Virus record (IMG/VR): IMGVR_UViG_3300032073_005220
Location: 1-64,000 of that record
Direction: 5' to 3' (one strand)
DNA length: 64,000 bases
Source of the DNA: a virus
The position numbers and the translations under genes were made by a program. Positions 3,812 through 28,237 of this stretch are shown piece after piece. The notes under the pieces were generated by a model that saw only the letters and a list, made by a program, of their open reading frames with translations, did not search any database and was not told where the DNA came from. How positions within the stretch are numbered: position 1 is the stretch's first letter; each line of letters opens with the position of its first letter.

Positions 3812-4117
3812 ATGAAAGAACCCAAAAAAATACCTCTCGATCCTGAGACTCCTCAAGCAGCAAGTGTAGAAAAAATTCCTATGCCTTCAATCTATCCAGA
3901 AGCAATGTCTAATGATGTATATTCTGCAAAAAAAGATGAGGAAGTTAAAAAGTATCCTCTGAACGACAGTGTTGAAAAAGAATTGCATAACTTAATAGAA
4001 GATTCAAAACAGTATCTATCAAAAAAAGAGGCAACTCTTAATTTTATAGAAAAAGTTAAACAAAGCAAAAAAAAATATAACGAAAGATTAGAAAAAGGAA
4101 ATAAAGATTCTACTTGA
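3812..4117 (+). CDS. Hypothetical protein
   Basis: ORF with GGAG RBS upstream. Confidence 0.55.
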   Translation: MKEPKKIPLDPETPQAASVEKIPMPSIYPEAMSNDVYSAKKDEEVKKYPLNDSVEKELHNLIEDSKQYLSKKEATLNFIEKVKQSKKKYNERLEKGNKDST

Positions 4118-4141
4118 CAATGCCGATAGATATGGTATACT
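4102..4141 (+). promoter_or_regulatory. Composite promoter: TTGACA-N16-TATACT with nested TAAAG...GCCGATAG
   Basis: TAAAG 4102, TTGACA 4114, CGATA 4124, TATACT 4136. Confidence 0.8.
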
Positions 4142-4176
4142 GGTAGTATCAGTTTAATTTCACAGGAGAATTGATT

Positions 4177-5861: not shown

Positions 5862-6202
5862 GGGGGCGTACTGGTATCGACAGATAAATAGAAGTATAGA
5901 TCGCATCGACTGGTTGATCTAAAGGCCAGTGTAAAAATAGATCACATTTTAATTGCCGATACTTCTGTATTAGCACTCGCCGCTTAGGTGAGAGGGGTTA
6001 CATAAACCTTTTTACCCAATTATGTTGACTCCGATAATCGGATAGGGATGTTCCACCTAAAGTAAATGGATACAATAAGTGTAATCACTTTGACGCAGGA
6101 AAGACTGATAGTTTTGTCTGTAGTATTAATAACAACAGACTAACGATGTAGAAGTTTATGTGGAATTTATACTGGACAGGGGTTCGACTCCCCTCGCCTC
6201 CA
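5862..6202 (+). ncRNA. ssrA: tmRNA, tag (A)ADTSVLALAA
   Basis: 5' GGGGGCG pairs with 3' CGCCTCC-A including G3:U wobble; T-arm AGGGG-TTCGACT-CCCCT; tag reading frame 5955-5987 ending LAA-stop; CCA not encoded. Confidence 0.95.
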
Positions 6203-6227
6203 CTTTGTACCTTTAAATTATTGAATT

Positions 6228-8710: not shown

Positions 8711-8743
8711 AGACTTGACTTTGCATTGACGATACTGTATACT
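8708..8743 (+). promoter_or_regulatory. Composite promoter: TTGACT-N17-TATACT with nested TAAAG...GACGATAC
   Basis: TAAAG 8708, TTGACT 8715, CGATA 8730, TATACT 8738. Confidence 0.8.
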
Positions 8744-8780
8744 ATACGGACAGGACTACACAAGGACTCAGGATATTATA

Positions 8781-15307: not shown

Positions 15308-15350
15308 TAAAGAAACACCTATTGACAAACCGATAATAGTAGTGTACAAT
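15308..15350 (+). promoter_or_regulatory. Composite promoter: TTGACA-N17-TACAAT with nested TAAAG...ACCGATAA
   Basis: TAAAG 15308, TTGACA 15322, CGATA 15331, TACAAT 15345. Confidence 0.8.
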
Positions 15351-15386
15351 CGTTAGTATCACAGGACTTAACTTTTGGAGACTATT

Positions 15387-16088
15387 ATGGAAACTTTGGA
15401 AACTAAACCAGTAAAGCAAACTACATATTCTCGTTTCAAAGCAGACGATTTCTTTAAGACATTCCCCACAGAAAAAATTCAAGCATACAAGGAGTACTGG
15501 GAAAGTGTACGACCACAGAATGATGGTGATATTTTTAGGCGTTATCTCTTTGCTTATTGCTCTGTTCATACAAGTTGGCAGGGGAATTGTCGTGGCTACA
15601 ATGCCATTAAGAACTACGAAGAGTGGGTTGATAACAAAGAAACACTATTAGACAAACTTAAAAATTCTGGCGTTGGTCTTTACAATAATAGAACAAAATA
15701 TATTTGGGATTTTGCGACTCAGTTTTGGAAGAATCCCAAAGACTTTTATTTAACTACTAAGAAGTATCATGTCAAAAAGAGAGATTCTATTGTAGATAAA
15801 ATTGTTGGACTTGGAATGGCTAAGGTTAGTTTTGCTTTAGAAATGATTCATCCAAATTTTGCAAGAGTTCTATGTGGAGATGTCCACCAATTAAGACTTT
15901 ACGGTATGGAGCATTTAAGTTATAATAAGAGTAAGCAAGGTAGTACGAAATATAAACGTATGGAGCAACATTGGAGTGTTAATTGCGGTAAACTTAAAGT
16001 TCCTTCCTATATCGCAAGATGCGTGTATTGGGATGCCTTGCAAGAGAAAGAAGATAGTCGTTACTGGTCTTATGTTTTAGAAGGTTAA
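15387..16088 (+). CDS. HhH DNA glycosylase, archaeal/thermophile Ogg (8-oxoG)-like
   Basis: RDSIVDKIVGLGMAKVSFAL (HhH with Lys) followed by CGDVHQLR (conserved Asp). Confidence 0.55.
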   Translation: METLETKPVKQTTYSRFKADDFFKTFPTEKIQAYKEYWESVRPQNDGDIFRRYLFAYCSVHTSWQGNCRGYNAIKNYEEWVDNKETLLDKLKNSGVGLYNNRTKYIWDFATQFWKNPKDFYLTTKKYHVKKRDSIVDKIVGLGMAKVSFALEMIHPNFARVLCGDVHQLRLYGMEHLSYNKSKQGSTKYKRMEQHWSVNCGKLKVPSYIARCVYWDALQEKEDSRYWSYVLEG

Positions 16089-16090
16089 GT

Positions 16091-16198
16091 ATGAGTCAAA
16101 ATAAAAATGGCAAAGGCGACACAAACAGGCCGAAAAGTGTATCTTATAAAAAGTGGTGTGAAAACTATGAGAAAATTTTTAGGAAAAAAAATAAATGA
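16091..16198 (+). CDS. Small basic phage protein (35 aa)
   Basis: GKGD..RP...W.ENYEKIF pattern typical of small phage ORFs; not in ORF track. Confidence 0.55.
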   Translation: MSQNKNGKGDTNRPKSVSYKKWCENYEKIFRKKNK

Positions 16199-16673
16199 AT
16201 CATACTTTACTGGATGTATTAAGCGTATGGTGGATAGTAGTGCTGGTAGATTTAAGTGTAGTGTACTTCTTTGTGAAACTAACTAAAGATAAATAAAATT
16301 GGTGTAATATTAATTATTGCATAAACTCTATAGGGAGATATAATGTCAGAATATAATATTGAGAATAATCAAAAAGCTACAGTAAAAGACATACATAAAG
16401 CAATTATTCAAGCTAATTCGATTACTAGCACTCTAGAATTAGAGAATCAGCGTATTAAATATTTGTTGAAAAATTTAAAACAAGTCGAAGAATTTGCCTC
16501 TTAGGAACCAATTATGCAAGAACTGGCTTTGATTATGTCTTTAAAAGACATATATATACTTCATGGTATGGACGTTTCCTTACTTAATAATTTAACTATC
16601 TGCTCTCTCTGAAAACACATTCGGTGTATTATTACTATAGAGTATTTGTATCTTTAGAATAATTGAGGTTAAA

Positions 16674-16853
16674 ATGAGCAAATTGCATAAAAGTAAGAAC
16701 AAAATGATATTTGGGGTTTGTGCTGGTTTAGCGGAAACTCTGGGTATTGATCCTGCAATAGTTAGAATTGGTTTTGTTGTTGGAGCATTGTGCAGCGTAA
16801 GTATTTTGTTTTGGGTCTATTTATTAATGGGTATCGTATTACCAACAGAGTAA
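16674..16853 (+). CDS. pspC: PspC-domain membrane protein (59 aa)
   Basis: Not in ORF track; MSKLHKSKNKMIFGVCAGLAETLGIDPAIVRIGF...YLLMGIVLP; GAGG RBS. Confidence 0.85.
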   Translation: MSKLHKSKNKMIFGVCAGLAETLGIDPAIVRIGFVVGALCSVSILFWVYLLMGIVLPTE

Positions 16854-16877
16854 TTTAATGCACAATAGGAGACTTCT

Positions 16878-17348
16878 ATGTTTAATAAAAAAATTCTCTA
16901 TGTTGTGCTAATTATATTACTATCTCTAATCATTAAACAGCAGGGTGGTTGTGTTGATACAGTAAAACCTAATCGCCCTGTTGACAATCCTACTCCTGTA
17001 GTTGTGGTCACACCCGAATTAGAATCAAATTTTATATATGACGACCTAGAAAAATCACAAGCACTGGCAAAATTTCACAAAAGAAAAGTGATTATAGTAT
17101 TCGGAGCAGAATGGTGTCCTTATTGCAAAAAAATAAAACAAGACTCTAAATCTATAAAACCATTCGACAAATATATAGTTTGTTTTTTAGACACAGATAA
17201 TAGAAGTGCAAACCAGAAATCTATTAATACATACAGACCAAGAAGCCTGCCAACTTCTATTTTGGTAGATAAACAAGGAAAAGAACTATCTAGAAAAATA
17301 GGATATAGGAACAAGGACTACATTAAATGGCTAAACTCTTTACCCTAA
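16878..17348 (+). CDS. Exported thioredoxin-family protein
   Basis: N-terminal hydrophobic signal; FGAEWCPYC; SLPT cis-Pro motif. Confidence 0.85.
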   Translation: MFNKKILYVVLIILLSLIIKQQGGCVDTVKPNRPVDNPTPVVVVTPELESNFIYDDLEKSQALAKFHKRKVIIVFGAEWCPYCKKIKQDSKSIKPFDKYIVCFLDTDNRSANQKSINTYRPRSLPTSILVDKQGKELSRKIGYRNKDYIKWLNSLP

Positions 17349-18136
17349 TATTTATTGTTGTATCATTCAGTATCGCTTTATGTGAAGAAAATAACAACAC
17401 TAAAGCTGTTGTAGGAATGCAACCAAGATCAATACCAATAGATATTGATATATTTGAATTAGAAGAAAAACAAAAATTAAATAAAAGTTCTGTATACAAT
17501 AGGGCTTTAAGTTGTTTTAGCAAACCTTTCGGAGATAAGCATGGAAGAAGTACTAATATTCACGAAACAGTTCATGGTATAAATAATGCTTTGAGTAATA
17601 GCAAAAGAGGATATAGAGGATTCTATTGTGGAACATCTAGAGGTTTATGGCTAAAAGAACCTGATGTAGATATGCTAGATATTATTCCAAACATACCTAA
17701 CGTATTAAGAGAGTATCGCTATTCTTTGTATTTTGTCAGTCAATTAAAATACTGGAGACAAGTAGCATTGTATCCTGTAGACGAATGGAGTGCTTATATT
17801 TGTGGTGCTGAATGTGCGGTAGACGATTATAATCAAAACATCTTGTCTAAAAGTAAGTCAGATAGTGTCTCTGGGGCTTTAGAATTTAGTATATACTGTA
17901 CTGCATTAGCAAAAGCGATTAAGGAAAAGGATAAAGAGTATTGGGATGATTATCCTCATTTTAAAAATACTATAAAGTTTTTTTTAGTTCGATCAGAAAA
18001 AGTTTTTTTTGAAGGAAGATTTATATTTCCTTCCGACAGACAAGAAAGTTTATTAGAAAAACTTCAAAACCACAATGAAGCTAAACCTATTAGAGATTTT
18101 TTAATCAAAGAATTTGATGGAGTATTTATCAAATGA
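17327..18136 (+). CDS. Secreted protein with HExxH motif (possible zincin)
   Basis: Signal peptide; HETVHGIN and downstream DEWSAY. Confidence 0.5.
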   Translation: MAKLFTLIFIVVSFSIALCEENNNTKAVVGMQPRSIPIDIDIFELEEKQKLNKSSVYNRALSCFSKPFGDKHGRSTNIHETVHGINNALSNSKRGYRGFYCGTSRGLWLKEPDVDMLDIIPNIPNVLREYRYSLYFVSQLKYWRQVALYPVDEWSAYICGAECAVDDYNQNILSKSKSDSVSGALEFSIYCTALAKAIKEKDKEYWDDYPHFKNTIKFFLVRSEKVFFEGRFIFPSDRQESLLEKLQNHNEAKPIRDFLIKEFDGVFIK

Positions 18137-18537
18137 ATAAATCTGATAGCGTATGGTACATACCTAATCTGTCTAGATTAATAGACTTACATAATGAAGC
18201 TAGAACTGATAATTCTTGGATGTGGAATCTTGATCCATTGTCTATGAATATGGATTTAATGACTTTTGCCGGTCATTGGGCTGAAGAAATGGCTAAACGT
18301 AGTAAATTAATACATAGTGATATGAAGAATATAATGTCCTTGGGTTTTTCAAGTGTTGCAGAAAATATAGCCTATGGACAAAAGACGGAAGATAAGGTTA
18401 TGAAAACTTGGTTAAAAAGTCCCGGTCATAGAAGAAATATACTAAGCAAATCTGTAGATAGTATAGGGTGTGGATTCCGTTACAGTAACTCTAATATTAT
18501 TTATTGGTGTGTTTGTTTTGGAAACAAAAAAGATTAA
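18133..18537 (+). CDS. CAP (SCP-like) domain protein
   Basis: HNEAR, AENIAYGQ, WLKSPGHRRNIL, YWCVCFG. Confidence 0.9.
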   Translation: MNKSDSVWYIPNLSRLIDLHNEARTDNSWMWNLDPLSMNMDLMTFAGHWAEEMAKRSKLIHSDMKNIMSLGFSSVAENIAYGQKTEDKVMKTWLKSPGHRRNILSKSVDSIGCGFRYSNSNIIYWCVCFGNKKD

Positions 18538-18540
18538 GAC

Positions 18541-18582
18541 TAAAGTTTTTATTGTTGACAAGACGATATGTTATGATATAAT
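18541..18582 (+). promoter_or_regulatory. Composite promoter: TTGACA-N16-TATAAT with nested TAAAGTTT...GACGATAT
   Basis: TAAAG 18541, TTGACA 18555, CGATA 18564, TATAAT 18577. Confidence 0.8.
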
Positions 18583-18616
18583 AAAATTGTTGTAAGCTGG
18601 ATATTTGGAGGAAAAA

Positions 18617-18889
18617 ATGAAAAAGGACAAGAAAAGAATCCATTGTTCTAATGAAAAATTTTTGGAAGCAGTATATTCAAGCAAGACCTACGCTGAAGTG
18701 TCTTCAAAGACAGGTCAAAGAATTACATCTACTATGGCTAGATATTCTAGAATCAAAAAGAAGTTATCAAAAAAGAATATAAAATTGCCGAGGATGGAAA
18801 GAATGACAAGAATCACCAACCTAAATGATGTAGACGATATAGTGAATATTATAAATAAATTAAAGGCCCAACATTTTGGAACTAATTAA
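18617..18889 (+). CDS. Small basic putative DNA-binding protein
   Basis: GGAGG RBS; HTH-like SKTYAEVSSKTG...MARY. Confidence 0.5.
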   Translation: MKKDKKRIHCSNEKFLEAVYSSKTYAEVSSKTGQRITSTMARYSRIKKKLSKKNIKLPRMERMTRITNLNDVDDIVNIINKLKAQHFGTN

Positions 18890-18894
18890 TATGA

Positions 18895-18968
18895 GGGGCT
18901 GTATTCCAATAGGCAGAGAAAACGGACTTAAAATCCGTACAGTGTCGGTTCGAGTCCGACCAGCCCTA
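18895..18968 (+). tRNA. tRNA-Leu(TAA), short variable loop
   Basis: GGGGCTG/CAGCCCT acceptor stem; anticodon arm ACGGA-CTTAAAA-TCCGT; T-arm GTCGG-TTCGAGT-CCGAC. Confidence 0.93.
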
Positions 18969-19019
18969 TTCAATAAATACAAAAGTGTTTTTGTTTTACC
19001 TTAACTAGAAAGATAGATA

Positions 19020-19181
19020 ATGAATAGTAAGAGTTACTTTATTGTAGCAGCGTTTGCAAGTTTTGTTTTAAGTGTTTCACTTTGGTTTCTTGGAGATCAA
19101 GCCGTTGCACAAGAACAAGGTATCTTTGTTGGCCTATGGGTTCCCAGCATCCTTGCATTAGGGAGTTATTTTAATGGATAA
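19020..19181 (+). CDS. Small two-TM membrane protein (53 aa)
   Basis: Not in ORF track; MNSKSYFIVAAFASFVLSVSLWF...GIFVGLWVPSILALG. Confidence 0.7.
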   Translation: MNSKSYFIVAAFASFVLSVSLWFLGDQAVAQEQGIFVGLWVPSILALGSYFNG

Positions 19182-19377
19182 TTTCGCACTCTTTGTGTGC
19201 GGCATTGTGGTTACGCTCATCGCAGGGATGGGCGTAATCACTTCTCAAGTCTTTTTGGGATATTTTAAATATTTAGAAACCGAAAGACTTAGGCAGCTTA
19301 AAAAAGCACAAGCACAACTACGAGAACTACAAGAACAACAGGAGAAAGAAGATGGAACGGTCAAACAGGCTGTGTAA
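19174..19377 (+). CDS. Small membrane-anchored coiled-coil protein
   Basis: N-terminal TM, charged tail; GGGAG RBS. Confidence 0.6.
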   Translation: MDNFALFVCGIVVTLIAGMGVITSQVFLGYFKYLETERLRQLKKAQAQLRELQEQQEKEDGTVKQAV

Positions 19378-19672
19378 TGCTTTTGCATTAAACACTAATA
19401 ATAAATCTGTTATTAAAGGATTTGAAATTATCACCTGTAGAGAAATGAATGACTACAATGGTGGTACTATGATACAAGAATTAAAAACAGCAGAAGATTT
19501 TTTAGATACTGACGAGTTTGGTTTAGATGAGCCGTTCTATAGAATATTCTCCATATATAAAAAAGACTACTATAAAAGCAGAAAAGCAATAGCGGATTTT
19601 TATGATATAAAAGAGGCTATGCTTTTTATAGAAGAACTAACAGGAAGTCCCGTTCACATATATTCATACTAA
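19352..19672 (+). CDS. Hypothetical protein
   Basis: ORF with AGGAG RBS, overlapping the previous gene. Confidence 0.55.
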   Translation: MERSNRLCNAFALNTNNKSVIKGFEIITCREMNDYNGGTMIQELKTAEDFLDTDEFGLDEPFYRIFSIYKKDYYKSRKAIADFYDIKEAMLFIEELTGSPVHIYSY

Positions 19673-19676
19673 TACC

Positions 19677-20714
19677 ATGCGTAAAAAAATATTGCTTACA
19701 GGCGGCGCAGGATTTATTGGTCATCATTTTGTTGACTATATATTAACACATACTAATTATGATATAATCACCTTAGACAGATTAGACTACAGCGGTAATC
19801 TTAATAGGCTGCATGAAGTTACAAGCGAATTAAACAGATTAGAACGCAAGAGAGTCACTACTATATTCCATGATCTCAAGGCTCCTATTAATTCTCAAAT
19901 TTCTAAATCTATAGGAGATAATATATCTTATATAATTCACATGGCAGCAGGCAGTCATGTAGATAGGAGTATATCAAACCCTTTAGAATTTGTAATGGAT
20001 AATGTTGTAGGTACAGTAAATATACTAGATTATGCTAAAACTTGCGATAATCTTGAGAGATTTATATATTTTTCGACAGACGAAGTATTCGGCCCTGCCC
20101 CAAATAATATAAAATACAAAGAAAACGATAGATATAATTCTACCAATCCTTACAGTGCCTCAAAAGCTGGTGGAGAAGAATTGGTTGTAGCTTATGAAAA
20201 TACATACGGTCTGCCTTGCTACATTACTCATACAATGAATGTATTTGGCGAAAGACAGCATCCAGAAAAATTTATACCTATGTGTATATCTAATATACTT
20301 AGCGAGAAAACAGTAACAATACATAGCAATCCTGAAAAGACTAACGCAGGATCAAGGCATTATATACATGCTAAAGATGTCGCTGATGCTGTTTGGTTTT
20401 TAATGAATTATGATGAGCATAAATTAAAAGTTCAAGATTTTGGTGGGGCAAAGTGCCATAAGTTTAATATTGTTGGGTCAAAAGAAATAGATAATTTAGA
20501 ATTAGCGAATATGATAGCTACTCATCAAAACAAAAAACTAAAATATGAAATGGTAGATTTTCATACGGCTAGACCGGGGCATGATTTAAGGTATGCTTTA
20601 GACGGAAATAAAATGAAAAAGATGGGATGGAAACCTTCTTGTGTAGATAATAGGCTTGGGGAAGTTGTAGATTGGACTATAAATAATGACAGATGGCTTT
20701 TTAATAATTCCTAA
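19677..20714 (+). CDS. rmlB: dTDP-glucose 4,6-dehydratase
   Basis: TGGAGFIG, AAGSHVDRSI, STDEVFG, YSASK, RPGHDLRY. Confidence 0.9.
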   Translation: MRKKILLTGGAGFIGHHFVDYILTHTNYDIITLDRLDYSGNLNRLHEVTSELNRLERKRVTTIFHDLKAPINSQISKSIGDNISYIIHMAAGSHVDRSISNPLEFVMDNVVGTVNILDYAKTCDNLERFIYFSTDEVFGPAPNNIKYKENDRYNSTNPYSASKAGGEELVVAYENTYGLPCYITHTMNVFGERQHPEKFIPMCISNILSEKTVTIHSNPEKTNAGSRHYIHAKDVADAVWFLMNYDEHKLKVQDFGGAKCHKFNIVGSKEIDNLELANMIATHQNKKLKYEMVDFHTARPGHDLRYALDGNKMKKMGWKPSCVDNRLGEVVDWTINNDRWLFNNS

Positions 20715-20814
20715 CAAATTTCTAACATGCCGGAAATATTGAAAAGGGTATTATACAGCATCAAGGCTAACTGTAGCCTCTCGCCAAACTTCCCCATATA
20801 AGAGGAATTTAATA

Positions 20815-21774
20815 ATGAAAAATCGCAAAGGTTTTACTCTCATCGAATTACTGGTAGTTATTGCAATCATCGGCGTTTTAGTTGGATTATTATTACCTGC
20901 TGTTCAACAGGCTAGAGAAGCAGCACGAAGAATGTCATGTGCAAATAATTTAAAACAGCAAGGACTTGCTATGCACACATACATGGATGCACAAAGATAC
21001 TTTCCTGCTGCTGCATGGACTATAGATTCTGCTGGATCATCTCCTACTGGTAATCGTTCTGGTACAGAACATAGTTGGAGAGCATTCGTTCTTGCTAATT
21101 TAGAGCAAGGTAATACTGGTTATGACTTTAATAAAAACTGGTGGGAAAATACTCAGGCTATCTCTTTGAACGCATCTGTATTTATATGTCCAACAGCAGT
21201 TCCTCCTAATGGTGGTTATGCTAATATTGATGGGCCTACCAGAGATAGCGATAGTGCTGCACCAAGTTTAAATCCTAATAATCTTGGATATACAGATTAT
21301 GAAGTATTTACTGGCGTTAAAGATAAAATCTTTCCTGCTGCTAGCGATCCTTATGCGGCGAAGGATCGTAATGAAGGATGTTTAATTAAAGATGCTGTTA
21401 CTAGAGATGCTCATATTAGAGATGGGTTTTCTAATACTCTTATGATTGTAGAGTGTGCAAGTAGACCTGATGTTTATAAAGCAAGTAATGGTAGATCGCC
21501 AACAGGTGATACTAACCAGTGCATTGGTTGGGCAGATTCATTAGGGCCATTTAAATTACATGGTGTTGATTCTAATGGAGATAAATGTAAGAACTGTGCT
21601 GGTAATGTACCTTTTAATGTAATTAATGATGGTGAAGCATATAGTATGCACCCCGGCGTAATGAATTGCGTATATGCAGATGGTTCTACTAGAACTATTA
21701 ATGATAATGTAGATTTAAGAGCATTTGCTGCTGCTATTACCCGTGCAGGTGGAGAAGTACAAACCATTGATTAA
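20815..21774 (+). CDS. DUF1559 prepilin-type N-terminal cleavage/methylation protein (planctomycete family)
   Basis: [43 protein letters not shown]; DGFSNT; H-X9-DG motif [12 protein letters not shown]. Confidence 0.95.
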
Positions 21775-21952
21775 AAACAAAAGTTCTTGGATTATTATTG
21801 GGTTACTCTTTTTATATCTAATGATGCTTCTCTCTGTTCCAAGGGGAGAAGTATCTGATATGGAGAAAGTTAGACAGTGGAAACCTAGAGATTTTTATTT
21901 GGTCTACAAAATGTGGACTGATGAGGAATACAGGAATGTAAATGGTAAATAA
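21725..21952 (+). CDS. Small membrane protein (start uncertain)
   Basis: TM segment [15 protein letters not shown]. Confidence 0.4.
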
Positions 21953-22508
21953 CGATTATTTGGTTGATATGAGTTGGTGCGACTCTGGTGGATATTGTGA
22001 CTTTATGCCCATCAGAGGAGAAAATAATCTAGGATTTAAAAGTTTTAAAACAAAAAACAGGGCATTAGAATCTATAGATAATCAACTAAAATTAGCCGCA
22101 TTTGATCTTGCTCCGAGGGTCGCCACAGACCTGTGTAAAATTCCATACTCTTATGACCCAGAACTTTTAAAACATTGGAATCCAGAAGAAACTGTGACCT
22201 CTTGGGGCTATGTGACAGAGAAGGCTATGCTTGTTGATGTAGATGATACTCCTTATAATAAACTGCAATCTCTTGTGGATAATGTAAGAGATAAAACAGG
22301 ATTAAAGTTTTGGGATTGCCATTGGACGAATATCGGATATATTAAAAGAGGGCGTAGAAAATTATTAGTATGTATAGATACAGGTGCAGAAAGTTTCACA
22401 CCATATTGTAATGCTTGGGGCTATGAAGAACCGGGGCCAAAATGTCCATACTGCGACAAGTATCAATGTTATTGTTCTGTGGCTTTAACCCATGAGGATT
22501 GTGTTTGA
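21942..22508 (+). CDS. Minimal protein-kinase-like fold protein
   Basis: SGGYC Gly loop, GFK Lys, DCHWTN catalytic loop, CIDTG (DFG-like), C-terminal CPYC. Confidence 0.55.
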   Translation: MVNNDYLVDMSWCDSGGYCDFMPIRGENNLGFKSFKTKNRALESIDNQLKLAAFDLAPRVATDLCKIPYSYDPELLKHWNPEETVTSWGYVTEKAMLVDVDDTPYNKLQSLVDNVRDKTGLKFWDCHWTNIGYIKRGRRKLLVCIDTGAESFTPYCNAWGYEEPGPKCPYCDKYQCYCSVALTHEDCV

Positions 22509-23398
22509 TGAAATATGTTGTGACGGGTGGTGCTGGATTTATTGGTTCTAATTTAGTAGATAAGCTATTGTCTGAAGATCATAAAGTTATTATTATGGAT
22601 AATCTTTCTACCGGCAATATAAATAATCTTAGTGAAAAAGCCCGCGAATCTTTTATATATAAAGATGTTGCTATGGCTTTGCCTCAAGAATTAAATAGAA
22701 TTTGTGAAGATGTTAATGGTATATTTCACATGGCAGCATTGCCAAGTGTGCAATTCTCTATAGAAAATCCTATGAAAACCATTAATTCAAATTTAATATC
22801 TACCATTAAAATGCTGGAAGTGGCGAGAAAAAATTCTGCTAAATTTGTTTACAGTGGCTCATGCTCTTGTTATGGTAATGCTGATGAAATTCCCACGAAC
22901 GAGAAAGAAAGCATAAAACCTCTAAGTCCTTATGCCTTAAATAAATATCAGGGAGAAGAGTATTGTCAAATGTATTCTAAAATTTATAACTTAAATACTG
23001 TGTGTTTAAGATATTTTAATGTTTACGGATGTAGAATGACCAGTATTGGAGCATACAAAAGTGTTCTTAGTGTATTTTTAGACGCTTACGATAAAAAACA
23101 ACCACTAAATATAGTAAACGATGGTGAACAAAGAAGAGATTTCGTGCATGTATCGGATGTTATATCTGCAAATATAAATGCTATGAATTGTTCTGATCAA
23201 TTAAATATGCCTATAAATATAGGTTCTGGTAAGAATTATTCAGTAAACGAAATAGCTGATTTATTTGGTACAACAAAGAAATATGGAGAAAAAAGAATAG
23301 AACCAAAAGCAACCTTGGCAAATATATCTATAGCTAAAGATGTGTTAAAATGGCAACCTAAAACTAAATTAGAACAATGGATAAAGGAGCAATTATAA
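22508..23398 (+). CDS. NAD-dependent nucleotide-sugar epimerase (GalE/WbpP-like)
   Basis: TGGAGFIG, YALNK (YxxxK), LRYFNVYG, RDFVHVSD. Confidence 0.88.
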   Translation: MKYVVTGGAGFIGSNLVDKLLSEDHKVIIMDNLSTGNINNLSEKARESFIYKDVAMALPQELNRICEDVNGIFHMAALPSVQFSIENPMKTINSNLISTIKMLEVARKNSAKFVYSGSCSCYGNADEIPTNEKESIKPLSPYALNKYQGEEYCQMYSKIYNLNTVCLRYFNVYGCRMTSIGAYKSVLSVFLDAYDKKQPLNIVNDGEQRRDFVHVSDVISANINAMNCSDQLNMPINIGSGKNYSVNEIADLFGTTKKYGEKRIEPKATLANISIAKDVLKWQPKTKLEQWIKEQL

Positions 23399-23703
23399 TG
23401 CCTTATATTAAAGAGAATGCTAGAAAAGAATTAGATGACTGTATAGAATCTATGGTAGATTGTTTGACTCACGGTAATGAAGAATTAACAAGTGAGGAAT
23501 TTGCTGTTATTTGTGGGGAAATTAACTATACTTTTAGTAGAATAATAGCCAAAACTATTGGTCAAGTATCTTATACTAAAATTGCTATCGCTACTGGTGT
23601 ATTAGAGAATATAAAGCAAGAACTATACAGACGCATGGCATCTCCGTATGAAGACAAAAAAATTGTAGAAAATGGAGATATCAAAGAATACAAGGCCATT
23701 TAA
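23398..23703 (+). CDS. Conserved phage protein (DUF6899-like)
   Basis: MPYIK...GEINY...ELYRR...PYEDKKI.ENGDI. Confidence 0.65.
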   Translation: MPYIKENARKELDDCIESMVDCLTHGNEELTSEEFAVICGEINYTFSRIIAKTIGQVSYTKIAIATGVLENIKQELYRRMASPYEDKKIVENGDIKEYKAI

Positions 23704-24008
23704 TGGATACAGATAATCAAAAGCTACAAAAATCCATACTAGATAATAAAAAGAGTATACAAGATATACAAAAAGATAATAAAGATATTAAAAAAATACT
23801 ATCTAAGATAGAAAGAAATCTTTCTTTACTCGTCAATAAAATACAAGAGTTTGAAATTGTGTTTGATGCTGCTGAAATTATAGAAGAAGAAATAGAGCGA
23901 CAAATGGAGGATTATAATACGGAATGGTCTCCTTATGATGATGAGGATTTTAAACCAGAAGAATACGAAGATTACGATGCTGACGACGACAACACTCATG
24001 GATTTTGA
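23703..24008 (+). CDS. Coiled-coil protein with acidic tail
   Basis: Heptad-like N-terminus; D/E-rich C-terminus. Confidence 0.55.
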   Translation: MDTDNQKLQKSILDNKKSIQDIQKDNKDIKKILSKIERNLSLLVNKIQEFEIVFDAAEIIEEEIERQMEDYNTEWSPYDDEDFKPEEYEDYDADDDNTHGF

Positions 24009-24081
24009 GGATTGGTTTGAAATAGAAGATGAAGATTTAGAGTATCCTTTTCTTCCTTGTTGCGATTCAATTTGGATAGAA

Positions 24082-24123
24082 TAAAGATTAATGCTTGACA
24101 ACATCTATAGACGATGATATACT
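24082..24123 (+). promoter_or_regulatory. rIIA promoter: TTGACA-N17-TATACT with TAAAG and degenerate CTATA
   Basis: TAAAG 24082, TTGACA 24095, CTATA 24105, TATACT 24118. Confidence 0.8.
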
Positions 24124-24162
24124 TAGGCTATCACAGGACAATAACTTTTTGGAGACTATTAG

Positions 24163-26808
24163 ATGAAACTTGCAGATCGTACAGTTGAAATTCACTCAAA
24201 CGGTGTTGATGCTAGTAATCAGTTCAGCATTGCACAAACCAGCAAAATGTTTAAGATTTTGTCAGATTCATTATATTCTGACAAGGTAATGGCAGTTATT
24301 CGTGAACTGTCTACAAATGCCAACGATGCCCACGTTGCATCAGGCAATAGGAACCCTTTCAAGGTCAGCTTACCTACACAAGCCAACCCTAACTTTACGG
24401 TGAGAGATTATGGTACTGGATTATCTCAAGAAGATATGGAAGAACTCTATACAACTTATGGGGCTAGTAACAAGAATGACAGTAACGATTTTACTGGTTG
24501 TCTTGGTCTTGGTTCTAAGAGTCCATTTGCTTACACTAAAAGTTTTAGCACAACTTCTTTCTTCAATGGCAAAGCGTACAATTACATAGCGGCTATGGAC
24601 GAAGGCGGCGTTCCTAGTTTGAGTTTGTTCGGAGTCGCTGAAACTGATGAGCCTAATGGTCTTGAAATTAGTTTTGCAGTAAAGCAAAGTGACTTCCAAG
24701 AGTTTACTAATAAGTCTAAGAGAATATTCCATTACTTTAAGACTAAGCCAATGATGGAGGGTGGTACTTGTAATCTTCTTCAGAACCATGCGTATTCTCA
24801 TACTAATACTATTATAGAAGGGACTAACTGGCGTGTTGGTAGAATCTCTGATAATGACGACAAGTATCCTAGCACATATAACAGTCCCGGTGCTGGTATT
24901 GTGGCTATCATGGGTAATATTGCATACCCAGTAGATTCCGATAAGATTATCGGCAAAGAAGAACAACAGCAAAAGAGTGACGCTATCCAAAGATGGAACA
25001 GAGCGTTTAAGAAAGCAGACGTAGATAACTGGACTAACTTAGTCAAAGAGATTCTAAACTCTGGCATGTATCTTGAAATTACCTGCGACATTGGTGAACT
25101 AGAGATGGATGTTAGTAGAGAAGGTCTACAGTATACTAAGTCTGTTATTAAGACTCTTAGAGAAAAGACTCAAGACATTTATCTGCAACTCAAGAGCAAT
25201 ATGTCAACTAAGGTTGAAGAGTGTACTAATCTTGTAGATGCTTACCAGACATATTATAAGCTGGCTGATATTGCTGGTGGATATACCGCTGGTGCAGAGT
25301 GGGTCGATCCAGAAGGCAAGCAACACGATCTGTCTGCTGGTGAAGATTTGGATTATAAATTGGGTAAGCACAAACAGTTGTATGTTATTAATTATCGTAC
25401 TGCTAGTCATCGTTCTAAGAGAATGTTATATCTAACAGATAAAATCCATCACGAAAGTCTACAGGGTAGATCGTCTAATTATTGGGATAATAAGCGTAAG
25501 AGTAATCCTCTAGCCTTCTTTGTCTGCGATACTAGAAGTCCTGAGACTGCCAAGAAGATTGCTATTAGATATTGTAATCAGAATGATTGTATGGCATATC
25601 TTATGGTTGACACTCAAAATCCAGCAGAAGATTCTGGTGAGGGTTTCGCTAAACTTATCAAAGATATTGGTGGAGAAGAGAACGTCAAGAATATCTCTGA
25701 GTACCGTAGTCTGCTGCAATCTAGCACCAAGGGAAGAACTGGCACTGGTGCTGGTATGATTAGTAAGGACGAAATCTTTCTGCTAAAAAGTTCTAAAGAT
25801 TATCATACAGATGAGTGTTCTGATCTTAGCGGCAATAATCTTAATGACTCTAATATACTTAGTGAATTAAGTGATAGTCTGGTAGAAGGACTAGAAGATG
25901 CTGAACGAGTAATCTATGTTCCTATTACTAGATATAAGTCTGTTAGTCCTTATCCCGATCTTCATAAGATTTATAGTCTATCAAGTAAAGACAATGTTTT
26001 AGGTAGTGTGCTATTCAAGAGATATAATATCTATGCTATCAAACAAAGTTCAGTAGCCAAACTACAAAAGCAAGGTATCAATCTGGTTTGCTTTAACAAA
26101 TGGTTTAAGAGCAAGGCTGCAAAAATGTCTAAGAAATTAAGAGAAGAAGTAGGTAAGTATGATGCAGTCATAAACTACTGTGACAAAGAGTATTCTACTT
26201 CAGATTTTAAGAAGCAAAGAAGTTGGAGTAGTCAGCCTGAGCGTTCAGATAGAGTTGTAATGGCTAATCTTTTAAATATCTATGGTCTTGACTACAAAGA
26301 CTATATTAAAAATGAGACAGTCACTAAGGCTATGGATGAATGGCTACTTATGTACTACTTTGCTCAGGTTGCAAATAGTGAATACTTTAATCTTAGAGTA
26401 TTTAGTAGACAAAGACTTGAACAGCATGTAAATAACATAGCAAGTGAATACAATATCGTAGAAGACGCAAAGGATATTCACACCAAGATTCTTAAACTAG
26501 ACAATATGCTTTGTGAATTTAAGAAACTATATGGTTACGAAGAATTGCCATCTGGTAAGAAATCACGTAGTCAGGCAATCATCAAGACCCTGCCTAAGAT
26601 GGATGCTCTTAGAAAAATTCTTAAAGGTGCTATTGACAGTTCACCGATACTAAAGTATATTGTTAGTGGTAACGATGAGTTGGATATTGAGAAGATCAAA
26701 AATGCTGCTCCTACAGATATTCACAACAATGGTTACTATGGTCGAGACAAATGGTTTGACAATGTTGAACTCAGCGAACTGAGAACAGCAGTAGGAAATT
26801 TGGTTTAA
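24163..26808 (+). CDS. rIIA: RIIA-like protein (GHKL/Hsp90-like ATPase N-domain)
   Basis: LSDSLYSDK..VIRELSTNA.DAH, RDYGTGLS, GLGSKSPFAYT, SREGL; adjacent to rIIB. Confidence 0.9.
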   Translation: MKLADRTVEIHSNGVDASNQFSIAQTSKMFKILSDSLYSDKVMAVIRELSTNANDAHVASGNRNPFKVSLPTQANPNFTVRDYGTGLSQEDMEELYTTYGASNKNDSNDFTGCLGLGSKSPFAYTKSFSTTSFFNGKAYNYIAAMDEGGVPSLSLFGVAETDEPNGLEISFAVKQSDFQEFTNKSKRIFHYFKTKPMMEGGTCNLLQNHAYSHTNTIIEGTNWRVGRISDNDDKYPSTYNSPGAGIVAIMGNIAYPVDSDKIIGKEEQQQKSDAIQRWNRAFKKADVDNWTNLVKEILNSGMYLEITCDIGELEMDVSREGLQYTKSVIKTLREKTQDIYLQLKSNMSTKVEECTNLVDAYQTYYKLADIAGGYTAGAEWVDPEGKQHDLSAGEDLDYKLGKHKQLYVINYRTASHRSKRMLYLTDKIHHESLQGRSSNYWDNKRKSNPLAFFVCDTRSPETAKKIAIRYCNQNDCMAYLMVDTQNPAEDSGEGFAKLIKDIGGEENVKNISEYRSLLQSSTKGRTGTGAGMISKDEIFLLKSSKDYHTDECSDLSGNNLNDSNILSELSDSLVEGLEDAERVIYVPITRYKSVSPYPDLHKIYSLSSKDNVLGSVLFKRYNIYAIKQSSVAKLQKQGINLVCFNKWFKSKAAKMSKKLREEVGKYDAVINYCDKEYSTSDFKKQRSWSSQPERSDRVVMANLLNIYGLDYKDYIKNETVTKAMDEWLLMYYFAQVANSEYFNLRVFSRQRLEQHVNNIASEYNIVEDAKDIHTKILKLDNMLCEFKKLYGYEELPSGKKSRSQAIIKTLPKMDALRKILKGAIDSSPILKYIVSGNDELDIEKIKNAAPTDIHNNGYYGRDKWFDNVELSELRTAVGNLV
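26622..26661 (+). promoter_or_regulatory. rIIB promoter inside the 3' end of rIIA: TTGACA-N17-TATATT with nested TAAAG...ACCGATAC
   Basis: TAAAG 26622, TTGACA 26633, CGATA 26645, TATATT 26656. Confidence 0.7.
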
Positions 26809-26832
26809 GGTTTTTATCACAGGAGTTTAATT

Positions 26833-27672
26833 ATGAGTGTTCCTTTTATGTGGGTTGACGGTAACTTAACGGTGATCTTAAAAAATAAGGCTCACCAAGT
26901 AATTCCAGATCATACTAATTACAAGTTGATTTTGGAAGCACTACCAACAGCAACAGAAGATGAGTTGCTAGAACTGGTAGATATTGAAAAAGCTATTGCT
27001 ACTTTTAGTCAAGGACAAGTATCAATCGTAAATGGTAAAGTAATGTTTGAGGGCGAAGAAGTTCATGGTAGTATCAGTAAGAGAATTATAGAATTTATGA
27101 GTAAAGGCTTACCTTTTCAGCCTCTTGTAAATTTCTTAGAGAATCTTATGAAAAACCCAAGTATGCAGAGTCAGCAAGAACTGTATGATTTCTTGGAACA
27201 TGAGAATCTACCTGTTACTGAAGACGGATGCTTCCTTGCATACAAAGCAGTCAACAGTGACTTTAAAGACAAGTGGAGAGGAACATTCGACAATAAGGTT
27301 GGTCAGGTCTGCGAAATGCGTCGAGCAAAGGTAGACGACAATAGAGGTAGAGGATGTTCTGCTGGACTTCATGCCGGGGCATTAAACTATGTTGCAAATT
27401 ATGGGAGCGTGGACGCTGGTGACAATATTGTGATTGTTAAAATCAACCCTGAAGATGTTGTCAGTGTTCCTAGCGATTGCAACTGTGAAAAACTTCGCAC
27501 TTGCAAGTATGAAGTAGTCGGTCTTTATCAAGGAGAATTGCCAAAGCCTCTTTATAAGGCTGAGTTTGAGGCAGATTCTTACGTTGATGAAGATGAGTAC
27601 TCAACAGTTTATGACGAGTATGATGAAGACTACTGGGATCAGTTTGAAGACGAAGACGATGAAGAATTTTGA
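26833..27672 (+). CDS. rIIB: RIIB-like protein
   Basis: NPS...LYDFL...TEDGCFLAYK, CSAGLH, VKINPEDVVSVP.D...KLRTCKYEV. Confidence 0.93.
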   Translation: MSVPFMWVDGNLTVILKNKAHQVIPDHTNYKLILEALPTATEDELLELVDIEKAIATFSQGQVSIVNGKVMFEGEEVHGSISKRIIEFMSKGLPFQPLVNFLENLMKNPSMQSQQELYDFLEHENLPVTEDGCFLAYKAVNSDFKDKWRGTFDNKVGQVCEMRRAKVDDNRGRGCSAGLHAGALNYVANYGSVDAGDNIVIVKINPEDVVSVPSDCNCEKLRTCKYEVVGLYQGELPKPLYKAEFEADSYVDEDEYSTVYDEYDEDYWDQFEDEDDEEF

Positions 27673-27675
27673 TAG

Positions 27676-27740
27676 TCTGTGATTTCCTGTGATAGTAGGT
27701 GAGCAATTAGGGCTAAGGTGGTTCGATCCCACCACACCTC
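27676..27740 (+). ncRNA. Candidate small RNA: antisense box TCCTGTGATAG followed by a tRNA-like mini-domain
   Basis: T-arm GGTGG-TTCGATC-CCACC (27717-27733) enclosed by AGGTG/CACCT; no anticodon arm. Confidence 0.45.
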
Positions 27741-27820
27741 TTTAGTAAGGTTGATTATATATTTTTACGGGGTATTATAAGATAGTCAGATTCGTTTCTA
27801 TACCGTATGAGGCATGTGTT

Positions 27821-28237
27821 ATGTACGATCCAGACCCAGAACATTATGAATATGATGACGATGACTTTCAAAATTATCCGCATGAATATAATGAGCATGG
27901 CTATCCTAAAAATTTTAAATTTGATTGGAGTGCTTGGGAGTCTTGGTTAATGGACGCTATAAAAGATATTCAAGAAGATAATAATAGTTGGTATCTTGGA
28001 CATTATAAAGCAGAAGAAGAAAAGAGTAGCGACAAAAAATCATCAACTGGTGGGTCTTTGAACAATAAATATTTTATATATTTAGGAAGTAATAGTTTTA
28101 AAGAGCCAATATGGAAAACAAAGTATTTTGTTGTTGATAAAATACAACAAGAATATAACGCTCATATATCAGCCCACGCGAAACACTTTTTATTACAACC
28201 ACAATATTACAAATCAATGTTCGACATACTGAACTAG
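27821..28237 (+). CDS. Hypothetical protein
   Basis: ORF with acidic N-terminus; GAGG RBS. Confidence 0.55.
   Translation: MYDPDPEHYEYDDDDFQNYPHEYNEHGYPKNFKFDWSAWESWLMDAIKDIQEDNNSWYLGHYKAEEEKSSDKKSSTGGSLNNKYFIYLGSNSFKEPIWKTKYFVVDKIQQEYNAHISAHAKHFLLQPQYYKSMFDILN

Follow-up and report, generated by a model that had tools for sequence, protein, structure and literature searches.

The genes examined here, rIIA and rIIB, lie in what we call the window, the whole stretch of 64,000 nucleotides (nt) analyzed, which is the first 64 kb of the 157,014-nt virus record IMGVR_UViG_3300032073_005220. Their leaders share a short word, the leader box, and a reversed copy of it, the antisense or anti-leader element, follows the rIIB stop codon just ahead of a small putative RNA structure resembling the elbow of a tRNA. 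Comparison with relatives indicates that nucleotide-level selection acts on the antisense partner of the leader box throughout the phage family. By the same comparison, the feature is real and conserved, stronger than an earlier note on this DNA saw, and organised otherwise than the fused small RNA (sRNA) proposed there. With a probability of about 0.58, we favour an explanation in which pairing of the kind known from icaR and hok damps rIIA(B) translation, while the tRNA-elbow mimic, independent of the box, would act as a processing signal or punctuation. The features on which the argument turns are as follows (SD, Shine-Dalgarno sequence; aa, amino acids).

24095..24123, + strand: rIIA promoter, sigma-70-type, TTGACA-17-TATACT, 11/12 consensus matches; kept in relatives
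24129..24162, + strand: rIIA leader with +1 box and SD, the main predicted target
24163..26808, + strand: rIIA, 881 aa (phrog_612, E 3e-109)
26815..26832, + strand: rIIB leader box, overlapping the SD in the window
26833..27672, + strand: rIIB, 279 aa (phrog_609, E 5e-71; PF26926), stop codon 27670-27672
27670..27695, + strand: two-armed antisense (anti-leader) element at the rIIB 3' end
27821..28237, + strand: downstream gene of unknown function, 138 aa, no family match

The leader box and its antisense partner

The 10-mer TATCACAGGA stands on the + strand at 15357, 24129 and 26815, and TCACAGGA at 4160; a recheck of the letters found the box, reverse-copy and T-arm coordinates of the earlier note all correct. 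Across the 157,014 nt there are three forward copies of the 10-mer, one reverse copy and no others, against an expectation of 0.18-0.32 per strand (Markov orders 1-4). All three forward copies lie in 5' leaders, and sigma-70-type promoters precede those of rIIA and of an 8-oxoguanine glycosylase gene. The reverse copy, TCCTGTGATAG, occupies 27685-27695, starting at the 13th base past the rIIB stop, and complements 24128-24138, although transcription from the sigma-70 promoter probably begins one or two bases into this 11-nt match. A partial copy, TCTGTGAT, stands ahead of it at 27676. The earlier note missed a second arm, 27670-27678 (TGATAGTCT), made up of the rIIB stop codon and the six bases that follow; it complements the SD-to-AUG stretch of the rIIA leader (24153-24161) and of the glycosylase leader, so that the predicted duplex is two-armed (-22.8 kcal/mol). 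In duplex energy against the rIIA leader, the element narrowly outranks all others among 21,325 windows (-24.0 vs. -23.8 kcal/mol), and because this margin is only 0.2 kcal/mol the case for it rests on relatives. A search for a minus-strand promoter ahead of the reversed box returned none. A long hairpin at 27668-27790 (z -2.9) was rejected as a candidate structure; it is not conserved, and what forms its 3' arm here corresponds in relatives to the downstream promoter region.

Relatives were collected as rIIA/rIIB loci with 73-97% rIIB identity, of which 150 are distinct downstream of the rIIB stop. A full antisense box stands directly past the stop in 17 of these 150 and a partial one in nine, all in one clade. 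A duplex scan confined to the 130 nt past the rIIB stop accordingly detected no general pairing, because the box usually sits further downstream, and a wider scan corrected the result: nearly all other relatives carry the same reversed box inside their homologue of the gene at 27821. There it lies in a variable linker (about 28010-28045 in the window, which lacks the box at this place) and forms F-P-V-N/S codons in a stretch that is otherwise hypervariable. The downstream copy is always reversed, and post-stop copies often come in tandem, repeating every 9-10 bp. The 138-aa protein itself scores no higher than 0.80 against the ESM Atlas.

The two positions exclude each other almost completely. 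The downstream gene is readable at 128 loci, which form the denominator for these counts, and the in-frame coding copy is found in 106 of the 108 without a post-stop copy, in none of the 14 with a full post-stop copy and in two of the six with a partial one. Its CCT and GTG codons are invariant in all 82 distinct contexts, with no synonymous change; background use in the same genes is 234/776 (30%) for CCT among proline codons and 89/533 (17%) for GTG among valine codons. One locus with a post-stop copy (L080) keeps an E-P-V-S peptide in recoded form. At the two loci with neither copy, L031 and L072, the rIIA leader lacks the box, and L031 carries a new 14-bp complement to its own rIIA leader directly past the stop. 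Since the two copy positions are linked, the 14 loci cannot be counted as so many events: when a tree of the downstream gene is built with the linker removed, losses of the coding copy form at least three groups that lie apart among copy-bearing lineages. We take these groups as the fair count and do not rely on Fisher p-values, which ignore relatedness. The downstream gene of relatives also contains a second conserved word, YCCAA, 18-22 nt past the box and with a fixed third-position C; frequently it reads TCTCCAA, which complements the rIIA SD region.

Conservation of the antisense partner in relatives is accompanied by covariation of its flanks with the rIIA leader. Own versus cross pairing with the rIIA leader, centred, differed by -1.47 kcal/mol in 32 thinned lineages, while 36 control coding windows from the same loci gave -0.02 (standard deviation 0.42, minimum -0.82); for the rIIB leader the value was -1.16. 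Beyond the box, the 5' flank of the element still pairs with the rIIA leader (-20.2 vs. -14.3 when shuffled, 29/30), and for promoter DNA ahead of +1 there is no excess (-16.0 vs. -16.5), the complementarity ending near +1. Peculiar, bulged features of the rIIA leader are tracked by the element flanks in L389, L270, L322 and L073; in L389 the element matches an unusual SD over 11 nt, and in L270, L322 and L282 the box is doubled in both partners. In the window, as in several relatives, the duplex extends to the SD. When all leaders of a genome were ranked as targets, rIIA came first in 4/7, including the diverged L031 type, and the ligase leader ranked first where the rIIA box is mutated. The flank covariation, the end of complementarity near +1 and the shared peculiarities favour RNA-RNA pairing but do not prove it.

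The leader box is old, and CACAGG marks a conserved set of early genes. Of 74 distinct rIIA leaders, 65 have CACAGG inside their first 14 nt. CACRGG is present in 88 of 90 distinct rIIB leaders; GGA is present in 70 of the 90 and lost in 20, and in relatives the rIIB box often stands apart from the SD or at the +1 of its own promoter. The other leaders concerned are listed below.

4114..4176, + strand: promoter and leader of a 144-aa early gene (4177), with the box over the SD
8715..8780, + strand: DNA ligase promoter and leader, with four GGA repeats of the box family at 8745-8780
From 8781: DNA ligase gene (PF01068)
15322..15386, + strand: glycosylase promoter and leader, a near-copy of the rIIA leader and the rank 2 target in the window
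From 15387: 8-oxoguanine glycosylase gene (PF22175)

A promoter followed by CACAGG was found in 13/14 genomes, with one match in the control, and CACAGG/CACGGG occurs in 20/135 promoter-proximal leaders versus 17/805 others, a count in which relatedness is ignored. The recurrently boxed genes are rIIA, rIIB, ligase, the 4177 homologue, whose leader retains CACAGGAG in 7 of 10 readable relatives, and a 235-aa gene. The conserved early set consists of rIIA, rIIB, ligase and 4177; the glycosylase leader lacks CACAGG in 11 of 11 relatives, and its box is specific to the strain of the window. Ligase leaders of relatives have tandem CACAGG, with up to four tandem CAGGA copies, and in the marine clade their tandem boxes mirror the tandem post-stop antisense copies. 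The ligase array of the window, which the earlier note did not record, keeps GGA in all four repeats and not CACAGG, and is CsrA-like in look. Early promoters of the window (2683, 4114, 8715, 15322, 18555 and 24095) also share a CCGAT/CGAT word in the spacer, kept in relatives.

The tRNA-elbow mimic and the surrounding genome

Past the antisense element, the window contains the following.

27697..27743, + strand: tRNA-elbow mimic, with no anticodon arm, no CCA and a short U tail
27697-27701/27735-27739: acceptor-like stem of the mimic, formed by the two ends of the module
27702-27714: D-like hairpin of the mimic, GG in the loop
27717-27733: T-arm of the mimic
27751..27778, + strand: weak promoter-like site for the downstream gene, 9/12, chance level alone; same position in relatives

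A module with this T-arm follows the rIIB stop in 111 of the 150 loci, including 99 of 102 below 84% identity and 12 of 48 in the marine clade. Module size ranges from 44 to 112 nt; the anticodon region is absent in some modules and in others reaches the size of a nested junction bearing additional T loops. The T-arm is a UUCGA loop on a 5-bp stem; none of 57 distinct parsed modules is followed by CCA, and U runs follow most. In a pattern scan, every distinct context but one chance match placed the module after rIIB, and a covariance model recovered one mimic per genome, real tRNAs and tmRNA aside. Looser pattern scans of viral contigs returned mostly ordinary tRNAs or chance matches.

The module of the window is no more stable than its shuffles (z -0.76), and the reality of the structure therefore rests on covariation in relatives. 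In the short class to which the window belongs, 93.6% of cells are paired and five pairs have changed on both sides, a level reached by 0 of 500 shuffles; this alignment was fitted to the model, and slid controls were far lower. Several pair types occur in the T, acceptor and D stems, with compensatory D-stem variants. There is no 7-nt anticodon loop, conserved anticodon or ARAGORN call, and nothing relevant was returned by Rfam at gathering and E-value thresholds for the module of the window or its relatives; 16 relatives gave a single weak tRNA match, at 23.1 bits where the cut-off is 29. A Y RNA was considered and rejected: five genomes contain no Ro60/TROVE gene, Rfam gave no match, and GNCGAAN0-1G is absent from the module of the window, a similar word appearing only in the nested L079 variant. 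These comparisons indicate that the mimic is a real conserved structure and that it is neither a tRNA nor a Y RNA nor a member of an Rfam family.

Several variants deserve mention beside it. Six loci (L064, L067, L079, L372, L373 and L379) have nested mimics of 102-112 nt with two or three T-loop-like hairpins, and the model also picked up unclassified tRNA-like genes with the unusual loop word CTCTTATAAG (L625, L629 and L634). Just past the mimic, L058, L069, L075, L297 and others share a conserved TTGA-N-TGAT...CCCAATAT element, which in freshwater relatives precedes an inserted gene of about 349 aa.

Box and mimic are adjacent only in the clade of the window, at 15 distinct loci. In the window the box lies upstream of the mimic; in most relatives it is found 0.2-2.0 kb downstream, inside coding sequence and beyond the mimic, the distance from the stop being 0.25-2.0 kb in freshwater relatives. 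Many close marine relatives have the box without a mimic, two loci among them combining a post-stop box with no mimic, and in marine relatives of this kind the box stands behind a promoter-containing hairpin or is directly co-transcribed. We read the mimic as separate punctuation because each element persists without the other beside it. Neither a promoter nor a terminator intervenes between rIIB and the box in L007 and L020, and in others the two are separated by a promoter/terminator or the mimic. A box effective from all these places would probably act both in cis and in trans.

At the position of the downstream-gene promoter, many marine relatives carry a clearer TTGAC...TATAAT within a terminator-like hairpin. 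In L005, L011, L013, L024 and L046, a sigma-70 promoter occupies the 5' arm of such a hairpin past rIIB, a layout in which read-through RNA could stop and new transcripts could escape. In marine relatives without the mimic (L010, L328, L330, L340, L349, L352 and L550), a GC-rich hairpin lies in the first 90 nt past the rIIB stop, and a word in its loop, such as ATAGTCTCC, complements the rIIA SD region; in L008, L028 and L551 the 3' arm of the hairpin complements the +1 box too.

The remaining genes in the window that bear on its setting are these.

5862-6203: tmRNA, tag ADTSVLALAA
20815-21774: SBP_bac_10 (DUF1559) pilin-like gene, SBP_bac_10 match at 20905-21717
28643: RuvB gene

A tRNA-Leu is present besides the tmRNA. 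The SBP_bac_10/DUF1559 and DUF1501 families are typical of Planctomycetota; since the first occurs in the window and a DUF1501 gene in one relative, a planctomycete is the likely host of the phage family. Genome-bin matches to Flavobacteriales and Alphaproteobacteria are short contigs and were excluded from host inference. Phages of this family are common in both marine and fresh water. Among deposited phages, the closest rIIB shares 44% identity, and there is no close cultured relative. Contigs assembled from RNA libraries cover the region, one of them corresponding to 27499-28089, and such contigs carry neither strand, ends nor level.

Proposed mechanism and alternatives

In the explanation we favour, RNA made downstream of rIIB would carry an anti-leader box with a CCUGUG core and U-rich flanks, in the 3' untranslated region (UTR) in the clade of the window and in the coding sequence of the next gene in most relatives. 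The box would pair with the rIIA message at its 5' end, +1 box through SD, and, more weakly, with the rIIB leader; pairing in trans with other CACAGG-led early messages, such as that of DNA ligase, is probable. Ribosomes would load first, and a duplex formed later would block loading and may invite RNase III. Because the box is transcribed 3.5-5.5 kb past the rIIA start, or from a downstream promoter, the result would be a delayed negative feedback. The mimic, right after rIIB, would be an RNase P/Z-type processing site or a stabilising or terminating 3' structure. From the conservation, exclusive relocation and fixed codons of the box, and from the covariation of its flanks and of the mimic, we infer pairing in the cell, repression as its effect, the cis or trans mode of action and cleavage at the mimic. 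The earlier note had offered pairing of the ends of the rIIAB mRNA in cis as an alternative; pairing with the leader fits best, and its cis form is plausible in the window, L007 and L020, other loci having the two parts separated.

Several observations weigh against this explanation. A terminator-like hairpin parts rIIB from the coding copy in many marine relatives, and action in trans would therefore be required there. L001 and L002 carry a mismatch in the core, and four loci retain only a partial copy of the antisense box. The own-versus-cross effect in the flank test is modest (21/30 lineages, p 0.025, the lineages being related). For rIIA, reverse-complement pairing scores about as well as sense pairing, so that the G-U asymmetry is no proof of action at the RNA level. 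In the target ranking, the rIIA leader came 15th and 20th in two genomes and was unscored in a third, where the gene was uncalled. The acceptor stem of the window has only five clean pairs; seven acceptor pairs are a major RNase P determinant (PMC4201824).

An extension of the favoured explanation, which we hold to be rather unlikely, is a protein-free timer of the early programme. In it the movable box, carried by the rIIAB 3' end or by the mRNA of the next gene, would pair in trans with all CACAGG-led early messages (rIIA, rIIB, DNA ligase and others), and cleavage by host RNase P at a mascRNA-like mimic would settle whether the box remains attached to the rII message or is set free. Among rival explanations, it is unlikely that the pairing is real but protective or activating, shielding the rIIA 5' end from decay or displacing a host CsrA-type repressor. 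The leaders carry repeated GGA, one over the SD, the ligase leader of the window keeps GGA and not CACAGG, and the phylum of the likely host has CsrA (PMC10729762); because the leaders are GGA-rich, 5'-end protection or competition with CsrA is viable. Yet CACRGG outlasts GGA in rIIB leaders, none of 14 phage genomes contains a CsrA gene, and a duplex that reaches the SD is usually repressive. The discrete 65-70 nt sRNA of the earlier note, antisense fused to a stabilising tRNA mimic and silencing an early regulon in trans, seems to us a little less probable again. The 15 loci with adjacent parts, the match between tandem antisense copies and the tandem boxes of ligase leaders, and the enrichment of the box in promoter-proximal leaders are in its favour, but since the parts are adjacent only in one clade the fusion is not a conserved unit, the box mostly standing far past the mimic, and an RNase P cut would fall between the two parts. 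The fused sRNA could still be a clade-specific form of the favoured explanation.

That the box is instead a protein-binding site on DNA, used in either orientation as a +1 operator with distant auxiliary sites for looping or as a packaging mark, is improbable. Copies do lie at promoter +1 in 13/14 genomes, a freely moving and inverting site would also yield exclusive placement and fixed codons, and the tandem post-stop copies with their 9-10 bp period suit such a site. However, this reading, also raised in the earlier note, is disfavoured by the downstream copy being reversed in every case and by the match ending near +1; the flanks follow bulges peculiar to the rIIA leader, flank positions 7, 9 and 10 interchange A and G as would suit G-U wobble, and no candidate binding protein was identified. 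Most improbable is the absence of any regulation, with the coding copy being a conserved F-P-V peptide and the post-stop copy arising by chance or by fold-back duplication of the leader. Template switching does generate short inverted duplications, and the rIIA leader pairs with other 27-nt windows at energies no more than 0.2 kcal/mol short of that of the element. Sequence comparison largely refutes this reading, given the lack of synonymous change in 82 contexts of an otherwise hypervariable linker and a peptide that is lost or recoded exactly when a post-stop copy is present.

The favoured explanation would make the locus a natural experiment that is rarely so clean, with a regulatory RNA sequence swapping between a 3' UTR and the codons of another gene, and those codons freed once a second copy exists. 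It would amount to a hidden second code in phage coding sequence and offers exact compensatory pairs. Diverse phages use rII genes against Rex-type exclusion (PMC11879866), and our literature search found no antisense control of these genes. Literature searches found neither element described, and the mimic could be among the unnamed candidates of Fremin et al. (PMC10690425); it is apparently an undescribed phage tRNA-mimic family and may be a bacterial counterpart of tRNA-like 3' punctuation.

Comparison with known systems

In the icaR mRNA of Staphylococcus aureus, a 3'UTR motif pairs with the SD, blocks ribosome loading and feeds RNase III (PMC3868564). The phage element is likewise a short pyrimidine-rich motif past a stop codon that complements the translation start region of the same message; the duplex of the window spans the +1 box and the SD-to-AUG stretch and is conserved and co-varying in relatives. 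Unlike icaR, the predicted seed is the first ten transcript bases and not the SD, the distance is 3.5-5.5 kb over an operon of two genes, the targets are several, and the motif changes place between a 3' UTR and the codons of another gene; the phage pairing is a prediction. In the hok mRNA, the 3' part folds back onto the translation region at the 5' end, an effect that processing of the 3' end can switch (PMC3868564, PMC5502269). The phage rII locus has neither a toxin-antitoxin pair nor, in comparison with phage T7, an RNase III stem-loop, and its candidate processing signal is the tRNA mimic. The control of T7 gene 1.1/1.2 by RNase III, attributed to Saito and Richardson in 1981, reportedly also involves 3'-to-5' pairing whose effect processing can switch.

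The mimic invites other comparisons. The mascRNA and menRNA of MALAT1/NEAT1 are cut from vertebrate nuclear RNAs by RNase P and Z, behind a triple helix (PMC9777231), and resemble it as small tRNA-like 3'-end structures of similar size with a reduced anticodon region and no encoded CCA. The phage mimic differs in having no Rfam match and no visible triple helix, and the likeness is one of predicted shape. YrlA, a bacterial Y RNA also found in phages, mimics the tRNA elbow with T and D arms (PMC4201824); the phage mimic, unlike it, keeps the tRNA arm order, builds its acceptor stem from the two ends and is accompanied by no Ro60 gene. Finally, the leaders share with CsrA/RsmA targets (PMC10729762) the repeated GGA, one over the SD, and differ from them in that CACRGG outlasts GGA in rIIB leaders and in having a complementary partner that appears to be under selection.

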